Of a stretch of 64,000 nucleotides of DNA, positions 39,001-42,000 are shown one piece after another. The DNA is taken from positions 1 to 64,000 of the forward strand of contig CAIJMU010000124.1 in NCBI GenBank assembly GCA_903821875.1, in the 5' to 3' direction. Every line of letters begins with the position of its first letter. The stretch's first letter is position 1. A program made the position numbers. The stretch is from an uncultured Spirochaetota bacterium. GTDB taxonomy: Bacteria > Spirochaetota > Spirochaetia > Treponematales > Rectinemataceae.

Positions 39001-42000
39001 TAAACTCCTAGCACGGTCCTCTACATCTCGACCAGGAAACTGCACCGCGTGACTTCTAGGCTTGCTGCATACGTACGACGTGTCCGCTACCTCGACATCC
39101 ATGAGGGCGAACCCTTGGATGAGGCACAGTTTGTGGGCTGGATTCAGCAGGCGGCCGCACTGCCAGGCTGGGTTCCCTAGGGCCAACTCCCAGATGGCGC
39201 ATAACGCGTGAGCGTGGCGGTGGCGGCTTATCCAGAACATTCCTTTTTGCTATATTGAAGGCATGGACATGAGTGCGTGGGGAACAGAGCTTAAGAATCA
39301 CCGCAGCGCGCTGAATCTAACCCAGACCGAGATGGGGAAAATGCTGGGGCTGAGCCAGGTCACGATTGCCAACTACGAACGCGGCACTCGTTTTCCAAAA
39401 AAAGAAACCCTGCTGGATCTTGCCCGGATCTTCGATGTTTCACTGGATGTCTTGTTGAAGGCCCCGGAATCTTCTGCCTCGTCCAGTTCATTTTCAGGTG
39501 AATTCCATTTTGGAGTTGATAGCCTTATCTCTTTATTGCTGAATGAAACACTTGATGCGGCGATTACCTACACCGGGAGCTGGAAGCAGGAGCAAAACCT
39601 GGACCTGGCGGCCTTGTATGAGACTGTTCTTATACCAGCCCTGGTCAGGACGGGAAGCCTTTGGTTTGAGGGCGAAATCCTCGTATCCGAAGAGCACCTC
39701 ATCTCCGACAAGATTCGTGAGCTTGTTTTTTACCACTCCAATCGGGAGCGTGAGCGCTGTCCGCTCAAACCCGCTGTGGCAGGGCGGTGGATGGGCCTCT
39801 GCGCTCCCGGAGAAAAGCACGAACTGGCACTATTGATGCTCTCCCACATTGTGCGCCTCGCAGGATGGCAGACGACCTACCTGGGTACCCAGGTGCCCTT
39901 TCACGATCTCTCGGAAATCATAAAAAAGCAGGAACCTGACGTGCTGGCTATCTCCATCACCATGGATGAGAACCTTGCGGGCCTGGAAATGTACCTTAGA
40001 CAGCTGGAGACCACCTTCGGAAGCCGGCCGGCCATCATGCTCGGGGGGGCAGGGGCCCATAAGCTGGACAGGAAGAAGTTTCCCCGGATTCATACCGGTG
40101 CTCAAACCCTCGGGGATGCTGCAACACAACTTGGGCGACTTCTAGCGTCCAGTAACTAGTGGCCCCACCTTCTATTAAGCCCTGTCCGGGGAGGAAAGCG
40201 AGGTTAACTCTCCATCGAAATATTACAAAATGAAATATTATGCTGACTTTGGACACGCTCCGTATTATATTCTGTAATATAGCCGGAGGTGATACGATGA
40301 CAGGCAAGGAACTGAATGAGTACGTGAAGGCGACTGAATTGATGGTTGTTCCAGGCAAAGTGGCACAGGTCAGCCAGTTTTCTTCATTCCTGCAAAAACT
40401 GCCCTTGAAGTGGCAGAAGGGCATTGCAGCGCGAGGGGCCAAGACCAACCCCTATATGGGTTTTATTGTAGAACCCTACAGCTTTTTCCTCTCGTATGAG
40501 GTCACCGACATCGATGCAGCCCAGAAGCTTCTCCCTGAAGGCTACCGGATTGTCCCTACCTCGATGTTCGCGGAATCGCGCCCCAGGCCGAGTGTCATCA
40601 TCGGTGCCTTTAATATCCATACCAGCGTTTTCTGGGGTAGCCGCGTCGAAGTGTACCTGATTGCTGAGAACATCAAGACCGGACTTCTGTCATGGATCAT
40701 CGTCACCTATGAAACCAATACCAACAGTTTTGACCCCGGTCAGGGCTTTATCGGAGCCACGACCTCACGGTCAGTGGTGACAACCTCGTATCGCGGTGAC
40801 GTTATTGTCGATGTGGAGGGGACTGACTCCGGTCACCGGATTGCCCTGAGTGCACCTGTTGGCGCAGGAACCCTGGCTGCCCTGAATCAGCGACTCTGGA
40901 TCGAGGGGAACCTCTCGGTCGATTACGGCTCCACGCTGACCGATGGCCCAAGCGAACCCTTTGGCCTCATCTTCGATCCCCGCGAGATGGAAAGCGCTCT
41001 GATGATTCCCCTCGAGAAGGTAAGTGTAGATATAAACACCCTCTGCGGAACCTATACTGCCAAGGAACCCTATGAGGCGGGATGCTTTCCCTTTGCCCAG
41101 CACTTCGTGACAACCAGCATGCCCAAGGGCACCAACATGAAGAACGCCCAGGATCTGGAGGATGCGGCCCTGAGCTTCAAGGATGGGACGCTGTCGAAGG
41201 GGCGGTGAGCCTGACGGGCGGAAAGATTGCAGTGACTCGCAATCACAACCAATTGAAACCAATGAGTCCCCGTTCCGCCCTTCCGAAGACTATCCCCAGC
41301 TCGAAGAGCTGCTGGCCTGGCAGTTCCCGGTACTTGGAGGCATAGTCCATCTTCCTGATCTGGGCGAGGGCCGGATTGCCAACTCCATCGGCCGGCAATT
41401 CGGTCAGGGACGCCGACGAGGGAAGAACCTTGATTTCCATGATAATGCGGACATTCTTTATGCCGATGGTCAGGTCTGCCTGGCCATGGTTACTGATGTC
41501 CTCGGGGATGACCTCGCAACCCATGGCCGTGAAGAAGGCATAGAGCACCGAGGCGTAGTAGCCCTCGAAGTCGGCCAGGTCGTTGTTGGTAAAGTTGCGC
41601 CAGGGCACGCCGGCGAATAGACGGCGGATAACCTTTTCCAGCCTCGGTAGATCCGCGGTTTGTAGCGCTTCCCAGGCCTCATTCTGGTACGGGATGCGCT
41701 GTTCGGCCTGACCGGACCAGGCGGAAAAAAGGCTGCTGCTCAAGGCAGTCTTGACTTCGTGGTTGGGGATTCGCAGGGTATATTGCATCGCTCCAAGCTT
41801 GAACTCGACATGGTCGATGGTCAGATAGCCGCTTTGGAACAGGAGGGTTACGGGTTCGATGCGATCCAGGTCAAAGGAACTCAGGAGCTCCTCGCCTGCC
41901 TGTATGCTCTCGAAATTCGGAAGGAAGTAGCTGTTTTTCTGGAAGAGCTTGATGAGGAAGCTCGGGCTGCCGGTTTCAAACCAATAGTTGCGATAAAACT

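Follow-up and report, generated by a model that had tools for sequence, protein, structure and literature searches.

The window, the 64,000-nucleotide stretch of DNA analysed here, carries on its plus strand a two-gene cassette formed by the regulator gene g02552 (39263..40159; 298 aa) and its predicted target g02553 (40297..41208; 303 aa). From the N- to the C-terminus, g02552 comprises an XRE (HTH_3, PF01381) DNA-binding head (aa 11-64; 39293..39454, plus strand) with the recognition helix Q32-V33-T34, a linker, a four-helix bundle (aa 85-165; 39515..39757, plus strand) that carries G131-x-x-W134-x9-E144-H145 and is the equivalent of the CarH adenosyl cap, and a Rossmann B12-binding domain (aa 177-267; 39791..40063, plus strand) with E184-K-H186, G208-x3-P212, S231-x-T233 and G261-G262. 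Pfam matches above cut-off comprise HTH_3 (11-64, E 5e-13; 49.3 bits versus a curated cut-off of 23), B12-binding_2 (112-152) and B12-binding (177-267), and both W134-x9-E144-H145 and E184-K-H186 are read in the sequence. The first-pass annotation, which had described an XRE head fused to a CarH-like bundle and B12-binding domain with Wx9EH, a motif defined in PMC8156234, is thus confirmed by the Pfam domains and W134/E144/H145. No MerR family, and hence no MerR-type winged helix, is found among the Pfam matches.

The cobalamin pocket is nearly canonical. The B12 motif ExHx2Gx41SxV/Tx22-27GG fits g02552, with E184, H186, S231, T233 and G261-G262 correctly spaced; its sole departure is Ala at position 189, where the classic motif has Gly, as do 75 of 130 full-length family sequences. 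H186 is, by homology, the predicted lower cobalamin ligand. All four SignatureFinder motifs are present, namely GxxW (G131-W134), EH (E144-H145), GxxH (G183-H186) and GxxxP (G208-P212). In the SignatureFinder study, green light photolysed each of the four proteins that carry the signature, and the signature-less one bound no AdoCbl (PMC11796333). Across the 130 sequences, G131, W134, E144 and H186 are invariant, and H145 and P212 occur in 127 each; the four ligand residues are likewise found together in 127, and all eight signature residues in 72. Wx9EH, reported earlier in 22 of 22 homologs, is matched in 127 of 130. The position of TtCarH His132 is held by F135 in g02552 and by His in a single family sequence.

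The AlphaFold2 model of g02552 (mean pLDDT 93.6) finds its best PDB fold matches in TtCarH (5c8d, Foldseek E 7e-12) and CtMerR (8jbs), and compares with 8c31 at an rmsd of 3.0 over 210 columns. Specifically, the head is modelled as five helices (3-16, 21-28, 32-40, 47-57 and 61-65), and its PDB sequence matches are the P22 c2 repressor and the ICEBs1 Xre regulator. Complex prediction for two full-length copies scored 0.72 and one control 0.62, a result given no weight in either direction. NF052513 matches residues 117-270 only (profile 114-256 of 274), at 60 bits versus a cut-off of 400. A methyltransferase corrinoid protein (MtbC/MtaC, MetH cap) was set aside, with scores of 12-27 bits versus cut-offs of at least 215 and Wx9EH present in g02552. 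Compared with its relative at locus L001, third codon positions hold 66 of 98 substitutions. Taken together, sequence and modelling tools establish the domain order, pocket residues and fold of g02552.

The regulator start, given previously as 39269, is better placed at 39263: L001 and L003 lack the second Met, and a -10-like hexamer stops 6 nt upstream of 39263. This hexamer is part of a putative leaderless promoter (TG-n-TATATT; 39238..39256, plus strand), which is absent from a consensus promoter scan that requires a -35 box. The putative promoter is overlapped by a degenerate operator site (39238-39254) that scores 4.1 bits versus 15-19 in relatives, and self-repression by the copy in the window is weakly supported.

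Upstream of g02553, whose start lies most likely at 40297 behind a GGAGG at 40285-40289, we predict a sigma-70 promoter (CTGACT, 17 nt, TATATT; 40243..40271, plus strand) with 9 of 12 consensus matches. The promoter scan of the region returned two predictions, at the shuffle level (mean 1.7); the -35 box keeps its offset in 6/6 cassette loci. Two 17-bp palindromes flank this promoter. The predicted operator O1 (TATTAC-N5-GAAATA; 40221..40237) lies immediately upstream of the -35 box, and the predicted operator O2 (TATTAT-N5-GTAATA; 40263..40279) lies across the -10 box, 42 bp from O1, a spacing found in all six cassette loci. They are the sole pair at most 120 bp apart among 26 sites with up to two mismatches in the 4.68 Mb genome. 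When the window, L001, L002 and L003 are left out of the matrix, O1 ranks second among 53 genome sites of at least 8 bits, and O2 scores 7.7 bits, under the 8-bit listing cut. A second matrix returned one further site pair, 40 bp apart, on contig C167. At L081, O2 is degenerate and the target is reduced to a 33-codon remnant.

In shuffle controls, which left out 2 short and 4 duplicate upstream regions, the counts were 15 of 21 versus a mean of 0.64, and 41 of 54 versus 2.55; the near-identical pairs window/L001 and L059/L185 remain in these counts and in those that follow. Anchoring that used only the -10 box and the start codon covered 48 of 82 regulators, the other 34 being unanchorable or duplicates. 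Here the left half-site xATxxC occurs in 19 of 20 Val33 regulators and 0 of 28 Thr/Ser regulators, whereas xxxCxC occurs in 0 of 20 and 23 of 28, respectively. These counts reflect one or a few events, since the motifs were read off the same loci as counted, the right half shares bases with the -10 box, and roughly a single branch of the tree separates the Val33 from the Thr/Ser types. Within the family, the sequence of the predicted half-site tracks a single recognition-helix residue. The predicted operator of the XRE-B12 family is new here, its binding being predicted from the conserved palindromes. CarH-type direct repeats (nAnnTnnACAn) were also tried and rejected: the best three tandem repeats reach 8/15 bases in both window promoters and 8-10/15 in three other loci.

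Genome-wide, single operator sites are not enriched, and the reversed pattern yields more matches. A wider regulon in this genome was rejected, as the next best sites (C153:35754, C82:5844 and C29:42072) are single, two are inside ORFs and none is beside a light-related gene. No operator of at least 7 bits was found at the genome's photolyase, lipocalin or tocopherol-cyclase-like genes, or at the SnoaL/SDR/CrtI-like genes of contig C146. The genome, which is 97% complete, has one class II-type photolyase, as reported earlier; it yields no match for phytoene synthase, in agreement with the earlier remark that no carotenoid synthase was seen, and none for a BtuR/CobA adenosyltransferase. AdoCbl supply is represented by a PduO-type adenosyltransferase, methylmalonyl-CoA mutase and two cobalamin riboswitches. 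With neither an operator match at the photolyase nor a phytoene synthase, the regulon of this copy looks like one gene.

That gene, g02553, had been described as lacking a known family. This holds for Pfam and NCBIfam, neither of which matched, and a sequence search against the PDB found nothing, but the fold is acetoacetate-decarboxylase (ADC)-like. The model (pLDDT 90.7) matches an ADC-type fold with a Foldseek E of 1e-7, a VIA comparison gives Z 14.6 (rmsd 4.2, 206 aligned) versus Z 5.3 for the next fold, and the protein falls in an ADC cluster of the ESM Atlas (0.94). Acetoacetate decarboxylases hold their Schiff-base lysine in the barrel. In an alignment of 120 sequences, the putative g02553 barrel shows no conserved lysine, the only near-invariant ones being K11 (93%) and K34 (89%) in the N-terminal helices. 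It has 819 homologs, some of which stand in Bathyarchaeota, Dehalococcoidales and Coriobacteriia records without sign of light control. SnoaL-like, SDR and CrtI-like flavoprotein genes occur as gene partners. Compared with L001, g02553 has 61 synonymous and 5 non-synonymous codon changes. Judged solely by fold and gene partners, the g02553 product probably modifies lipids or isoprenoids. In two lake-water metatranscriptome runs of one study, short near-identical contigs run across both cassette genes; they cover the flanking genes at the same low depth and therefore do not demonstrate transcription of the cassette.

Within about 6 kb on either side of the regulator, 48 Spirochaetia loci hold photolyase (10), lipocalin (6), CrtI-like (5), CrtB (4) and DUF523/1722 (4) genes, and in 16 of them at least one gene is of the photolyase, glycosylase, carotenoid or DUF523/1722 kind; in metagenome loci, genes for glycosylase, CruF, lycopene cyclase and CofGH are found in addition. 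Photolyase, carotenoid, pyrimidine-dimer glycosylase, CofGH and lipocalin genes cluster near family members far above chance. The commonest neighbour, an RND efflux pump (24/48 loci), is not light-specific. Of the 25 regulator-bearing genomes with a photolyase, 12 carry it within about 6 kb of the regulator (5 families; 5 within 150 bases), and 20 of 45 regulator-bearing genomes of the class have no photolyase match. At L209, whose regulator likewise has a QVT helix, the lipocalin-DegV-photolyase-DUF523/1722 genes follow a perfect TATAAC-N5-GTTATA, and at L241 a second, Thr-type regulator has an ADC-fold gene cluster at a distance of 1.6 kb and a photolyase at 5.8 kb. Within the genus, photolyase and cassette occur together in G000, G401 and G403, and neither occurs in G402, G404 and G405. 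The proposal that g02552 controls photo-oxidative stress genes is thus supported at the level of the family, which keeps the AdoCbl pocket residues and clusters with light-related genes. For this copy, with g02553 as sole well-supported target and no operator at the photolyase, lipocalin or tocopherol-cyclase-like genes, such control is read across from relatives.

With a 130-sequence profile, full-length family matches occur in 46 of 351 Spirochaetia genomes, the present one included, in line with the 29 of 301 counted earlier. The family is also found in 3 of 401 Bacillota genomes and is therefore no spirochete speciality; a narrow 18-sequence profile, which undercounts relative to the 130-sequence one, found it in only 3 of 401 phylum genomes. 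A quick sensor-domain tree, with 26 of 73 branches well supported, places g02552 in a 10-member subclade (97% support) that is linked to the ADC-fold gene and keeps the Wx9EH cap throughout; a single origin of the XRE fusion is not shown by this tree. An XRE-type B12 photoreceptor was not found in the literature searched, key reviews being outside that search.

Taken together, we consider it probable that g02552, an XRE head joined to a CarH-type B12 module, is a dark repressor of g02553 that acts through two palindromic operators and is released by light. It likely binds adenosylcobalamin and is predicted to oligomerise in the dark, and the oligomer would bind O1 and O2, 42 bp apart, covering the g02553 promoter and repressing it. 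Light would then break the cobalt-carbon bond, so that g02552 would let go and g02553 would be transcribed. XRE heads bind palindromes as dimers, and B12-driven assembly would therefore supply the dimerisation; a CarH-like tetramer would present four heads to two sites that share one DNA face at a distance of four helical turns. Oxygen may be needed to complete the switch, as in TtCarH.

Alternatively, g02552 might repress g02553 according to cobalamin state, that is, AdoCbl supply or cobalt oxidation by oxygen, with light sensing ancestral and unused in the 10-member subclade. Tetramer disassembly in TtCarH needs His132, the H132A variant mostly stays tetrameric in light, and TtCarH requires oxygen for the full switch (PMC10442372); g02552 has no His132 equivalent. 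The bond of the subclade to the ADC-fold gene, the operator-free photolyase of the genome and the g02553 homologs in lineages without sign of light control favour this reading too. However, CtMerR, with Arg at the His132 position, still monomerises (PMC11796333), and every subclade member keeps the Wx9EH cap. Two riboswitches already serve B12 supply, the neighbour families listed for the 48 loci include no B12 synthesis or transport gene, cassette and photolyase share the same 3 of 6 genus genomes, and the Thr-type regulator of L241 also lies near both an ADC-fold cluster and a photolyase. We regard control by cobalamin state as rather unlikely.

Far less probable is a repressor that, in the manner of CarA or class II/III LitR, needs no B12 and which a partner protein or another ligand would release under photo-oxidative stress, the B12 module being merely an oligomerisation domain. 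Ala189 in place of the motif Gly would suit this reading, and CarA, with a canonical B12 motif, represses without B12; the same review ties CarA independence to a missing Wx9EH (PMC8156234), which g02552 and nearly all its relatives have. Moreover, the 48 loci show no recurrent small partner gene next to the regulator, and the cassette moves as two genes only. The R. rubrum HP1 protein, considered as a redox rival, was set aside as it has lost the B12 domain. It is similarly improbable that g02552 is a B12 photoreceptor for which g02553 is not a target, the palindromes being mere A/T-rich promoter elements. The overlap of right half-sites with -10 boxes, the lack of enrichment of single sites and the low scores of O2 and the self-site point that way, but O1 lies upstream of the -35 box, is kept in 6/6 loci and stands at a fixed distance from O2, and the left halves, which lie beyond the -10 box, change together with the recognition-helix residue. 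The two cassette genes also travel together, and seven close regulator homologs are indirectly paired with the closest g02553 homologs.

Beyond the light-released repression of g02553, we tentatively propose, as a possibility that we doubt more than we believe, that the B12 photoreceptor repressors of Spirochaetia and Bacillota, mostly anaerobes, form a second class that was wired independently. The four XRE heads of a tetramer assembled by B12 would clamp two palindromes four helical turns apart under a one-residue half-site code, release would require both light and oxygen but not the His132 ligand switch, and in this lineage the lysine-less ADC-fold family would perform a photoprotective lipid-modifying step. 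In the literature covered, every B12 light switch with demonstrated direct DNA binding combines a MerR head with direct repeats; an XRE head on short palindromic operators would mean that the sensor can be rewired in nature. The family might then offer synthetic biology a compact switch for green light, for which two or more operator types are predicted, and, as it lacks His132, a test of switching without a bis-His state. Its occurrence in anaerobes is relevant to the question of whether such proteins report light by itself or light combined with oxygen. It would also point to light-protection regulons in free-living spirochetes and provide a first functional lead for an unnamed, 800-member ADC-fold family.

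Among known systems, the acetoacetate decarboxylase-like superfamily (AADC, MppR, Swit_4259) shares the fold of g02553 (Z 12.3-14.6, about 200 residues aligned), yet g02553 differs in its 7-13% identity, the apparent absence of a conserved barrel lysine and its SnoaL-like/SDR/CrtI-like partners. XRE or cI-type repressors (P22 c2, ICEBs1 Xre regulator) share the five-helix head with g02552, whose C-terminal part is a B12 sensor rather than a peptidase or dimerisation domain. Phage cI repressors use 17-bp palindromic sites and a leaderless self-promoter, both of which are also predicted for g02552. Photocobilins (photoglobin-B12 proteins) and stand-alone AerR-like B12 sensors have the same Wx9EH sensor module (PMC10979010, PMC8717448), whereas g02552 has no globin domain and a DNA-binding head as output; in the sensor-domain tree, globin-fused forms (labelled from their N-termini) and stand-alone forms of Spirochaetota nest among XRE forms. 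CtMerR of Chloracidobacterium thermophilum (PDB 8JBS/8JBT), the best PDB sequence match of g02552 (E 2e-13, residues 112-264), shares all four signature motifs and the lack of a His after the Trp, but has a MerR-family head; the accessible part of PMC11796333 reports that it switches from tetramer to monomer in green light and does not determine its operator. CarH and class I LitR (Thermus thermophilus TtCarH, PDB 5C8D/5C8E; Myxococcus xanthus; Bacillus megaterium) share with g02552 the N-terminal DNA-binding head, flexible linker, Wx9EH four-helix bundle and lower-His Rossmann domain, an operator over the target promoter, predicted in g02552, and photolyase and carotenoid neighbours in the family. 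They differ in having a MerR winged helix instead of an XRE head, and CarH binds tandem 11-bp direct repeats instead of the 17-bp palindromes predicted here; compared with TtCarH, g02552 also has Phe at His132 and a likely leaderless self-promoter. The earlier description of g02552 as a CarH/LitR variant with another DNA-binding head therefore holds for its CarH-type sensor module and XRE head but not for membership: g02552 would work like CarH, yet with its other head and other operator it stands apart from CarH.

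The regulator gene g02552 (39263-40159, + strand) encodes 298 residues in which Pfam places HTH_3 (residues 11-64), B12-binding_2 (112-152) and B12-binding (177-267), all above cut-off, bearing out the XRE-sensor fusion described in the first-pass annotation. The NCBIfam CarH profile covers the sensor part alone (residues 117-270; 60 bits against a cut-off of 400). Among PDB sequences, the C-terminal part matches CtMerR, TtCarH and photocobilins, and the head matches P22 c2 and an Xre regulator; among records with a name, the nearest (89-90%) come from MAGs of Spirochaetota and Rectinemataceae. 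Because 66 of the 98 base changes between the gene and its counterpart at the related locus L001 fall at third codon positions, it is under purifying selection. Around the locus stand three genes for AAA ATPases of the DUF4143 or PD-(D/E)XK types (37770-38951, 41243-42940 and 48485-49654), and a decayed reading frame between an AAA ATPase gene and the regulator (39090-39240), which we take to resemble DUF1801, is longer in L001 and in L002, another related locus, and partly deleted here. The AAA-ATPase gene at 41243-42940 is absent from this position in L001 and L002, and the stretch holding g02552 and the next gene, g02553, has a GC content of 51-57% versus 61% for the genome, so a variable region would fit.

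A word-indexed search (19 proteins) and the best 150 matches of an exhaustive profile search were pooled, and 129 of 161 candidates were kept as full-length XRE-plus-sensor homologs. Among the matches listed plus the query (130 sequences), W134, E144, H186 and G131 are invariant and H145 and P212 are present in 127, in line with the earlier claim that Wx9EH (W134, E144, H145) is kept. Named members, six among 20 looked up, come from Spirochaetaceae/Spirochaetales, Alkaliphilus hydrothermalis, Halanaerobium and one Bacillota MAG. With a profile of all 130 sequences, 50 full-length matches, one with an internal stop, were found in 46 of 351 Spirochaetia genomes, this one included (29 of 301 had been reported before), and full-length matches in 3 of 401 Bacillota genomes; a narrower profile matched in 3 of 401 Spirochaetota genomes and 4 of 151 relatives. 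Inside the window's own family the regulator is patchy (3/69 genomes). Some match occurs in 83 of the 351 class genomes, and many Spirochaetota genomes hold Wx9EH B12 domains that stand alone, or forms whose long N-terminal part is not of XRE type and reads to us as possibly globin-like (L030-L053).

Between g02552 and g02553 lie two predicted 17-bp palindromes, O1 (40221) and O2 (40263), each with one mismatch to TATTAC-N5-GTAATA. By promoter prediction, in a region where promoter-like sites are as numerous as in shuffles, the -35 box of g02553 (40243) is flanked by O1 and O2, and its -10 box (40266) is covered by a palindrome. With this pattern, taken from the locus itself, allowing up to two mismatches gives 26 sites in the 4.68-Mb genome, and O1/O2 are the sole pair within 120 bp. 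When the window, L001, L002 and the related locus L003 are left out of the matrix, O1 comes second among 53 genome sites, with O2 slightly below the listing cut; this independent matrix also yields a second operator-like pair in this genome, 40 bp apart (G000:C167:30825 and 30865). The 42-bp O1-O2 spacing and the -35 offset are identical in six of six loci (the window, L001, L002, L003, L059 and L081), all of which hold both genes or their remnant; in L081 the target has shrunk to 33 codons and O2 is degenerate. Sites 41 bp apart lie ahead of the regulator in L205 and L208. Single operator sites are not enriched in genomes.

In many members, a related site lies 25 bases ahead of the regulator's own start, over a -10 box ending 6-8 nt before the start codon, an arrangement that points to leaderless, self-repressed transcription; the self-site in the window is weak (4.1 bits, independent matrix). 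In the 48 of 82 regulators that were anchored, solely on -10 box and start codon, the left half-site reads xATxxC in 19 of 20 with Val at residue 33 of the recognition helix versus 0 of 28 with Thr/Ser, and xxxCxC in 0 of 20 versus 23 of 28. Unanchored, TATAAC-N5-GTTATA fits better in 20/21 Val-type and TAACAC-N5-GTGTTA in 40/54 Thr/Ser-type regulators, far above shuffles, the motifs being derived from the loci counted and their right halves overlapping the -10 box. The half-site thus follows residue 33; in a quick tree the two types separate at roughly a single branch, so the correlation represents one or few events.

The regulator and g02553 form, as judged from sequence, a two-gene cassette. 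The cassette is the only DNA common to the window and L003, four of the 69 family genomes carry the target and the three regulator-bearing ones are among these, and seven close regulator homologs seemingly (indirectly) come from the same sources as the closest g02553 homologs. g02553 has 819 homologs and no match in Pfam or NCBIfam, as expected for a gene annotated as lacking a known family, but its model (pLDDT 90.7) matches an acetoacetate-decarboxylase (ADC)-like fold (Foldseek E 1e-7; Z 14.6 with rmsd 4.2 over 206 aligned residues, against 5.3 for the next fold), and ESM Atlas puts it in an ADC cluster (0.94). ADC enzymes use a barrel lysine for Schiff-base chemistry, which is doubtful for g02553 because its barrel has no conserved lysine. 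In four genomes (G264, G174, G057 and G589), the g02553 family appears as two paralogs beside a CrtI-like flavoprotein, in most cases with an SDR and a SnoaL-like protein; in G589 this cluster follows a Thr-type regulator by 1.6 kb. Such a cluster, made up of a SnoaL/DUF2358 protein, an SDR, a CrtI-like flavoprotein and a pair of ADC-fold paralogs, recurs in four Spirochaetota genomes (L148, L149, L150, L241). In this genome the SnoaL/DUF2358, SDR and CrtI-like genes lie on another contig (G000:C146:23849-26928), with no operator match at any of the three, and the single ADC-fold gene is under the B12 regulator. From gene context, our guess is a lipid or isoprenoid substrate.

Across 48 Spirochaetia regulator loci (~6 kb each side, some ended by contig ends), neighbours include DegV-Dak2 (9), PlsY (8), DUF1295 (7), lipocalin (6), CrtI-like (5), CrtB (4), DUF523/1722 (4) and ADC-like (2) genes; 16 loci have a photolyase (10), glycosylase, carotenoid or DUF523/1722 gene, and 8 match no queried family. 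The commonest neighbour is an RND pump (24/48; L186-L226), with a membrane fusion protein (23/48) and often an outer-membrane protein, behind the predicted operator and either immediately after the regulator or divergent from it. Photolyase was found in 25 of 45 regulator-bearing class genomes, with no match in 20; in 12 of the 25, from five families, it lies within ~6 kb of the regulator (within 150 bases in 5), where simple arithmetic for one gene in ~4 Mb gives a chance expectation <0.1. In L209, whose helix is QVT as in the window, a perfect site precedes lipocalin-DegV-photolyase-DUF523/1722. Within the genus, photolyase and cassette occur together in G000 (this genome), G401 and G403, and both are absent from G402, G404 and G405 (88-95% complete). 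Additionally, metagenome loci (58 neighbours scanned) add pyrimidine-dimer glycosylase, CruF, lycopene cyclase, tocopherol-cyclase-like and CofGH genes, and tandem regulator paralogs adjoin carotenoid genes in L183 (G544) and L082. In a Bacillota member the regulator faces cofG-cofH; in two Bacillota-like loci (L078; L243:4856-8579) it faces cofG-cofH together with a DICT-domain gene, which may put provision of the photolyase antenna 8-HDF under light control. Membrane repair under light is suggested by a lipid-related block (DUF1295, PlsY, acyltransferase, DegV-Dak2 fusion, lipocalin; L204, L207, L209-L212, L216, L222) that goes with regulators of the Val type and with their operator.

We consider it probable that an AdoCbl-bound dark oligomer on O1/O2 represses g02553 and is released by light. 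The order of the domains, the motifs, the fold, the palindromes and the neighbouring genes are observed; we infer every dynamic step: AdoCbl would bind between the helical bundle and the Rossmann domain, the dark form would oligomerise, its XRE heads would sit as pairs on O1 and O2, closing off the promoter, and light would split the Co-C bond, loosening the oligomer so that g02553 is read. The genome is able to supply AdoCbl, because it has a PduO-type adenosyltransferase, methylmalonyl-CoA mutase and two cobalamin riboswitches.

The regulator carries GxxW, EH, GxxH and GxxxP, which SignatureFinder associates with light response (available portion of PMC11796333), and both motifs defining CarH homologs (available portion of PMC8156234), with Ala189 for Gly as one departure. 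An equivalent of His132, required with oxygen for TtCarH tetramer disassembly (PMC10442372, in part), was not found in the regulator, which has Phe135 (His in 1/130 family sequences); CtMerR, with Arg at this position, goes from tetramer to monomer all the same (PMC11796333, same portion). With motifs kept, His132 absent and CtMerR still switching, analogy supports photolysis well, and its coupling to DNA release less well. A sensor of cobalamin or oxygen that takes no light input would fit the missing His132; we regard it as unlikely. A B12-independent repressor with a partner, at odds with the conserved B12 pocket, is highly improbable. We likewise see a very slim chance of a photoreceptor with a target other than g02553. 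This genome does have the photolyase annotated earlier. Against the light context stand the 20 regulator-bearing genomes with no photolyase match, the 8 loci matching no queried family, the lack of an operator site at this genome's photolyase, lipocalin and cyclase-like genes, and a phytoene synthase search that found no match, as the reported lack of a carotenoid synthase implied. The photo-oxidative-stress link drawn in the first-pass annotation is therefore supported for the family, by its light-related neighbours, and for this copy only in part.

The light-released repressor proposed here would work like CarH. Unlike CarH, for which a MerR head and a direct-repeat operator are defining features, the regulator has an XRE head and predicted palindromes, and a search for a CarH-type direct-repeat array found none. 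[quoted passage not shown] An XRE-type B12 photoreceptor was likewise not found in the available parts of the other literature searched (including PMC10979010, PMC10442372, PMC8156234, PMC8123684 and PMC10734443), matching the earlier outcome within a limited coverage of reviews, and an earlier listing in print is possible. The sensor chemistry is already known, and this putative photoreceptor family lends itself to direct testing through its predicted operator, target and helix code.
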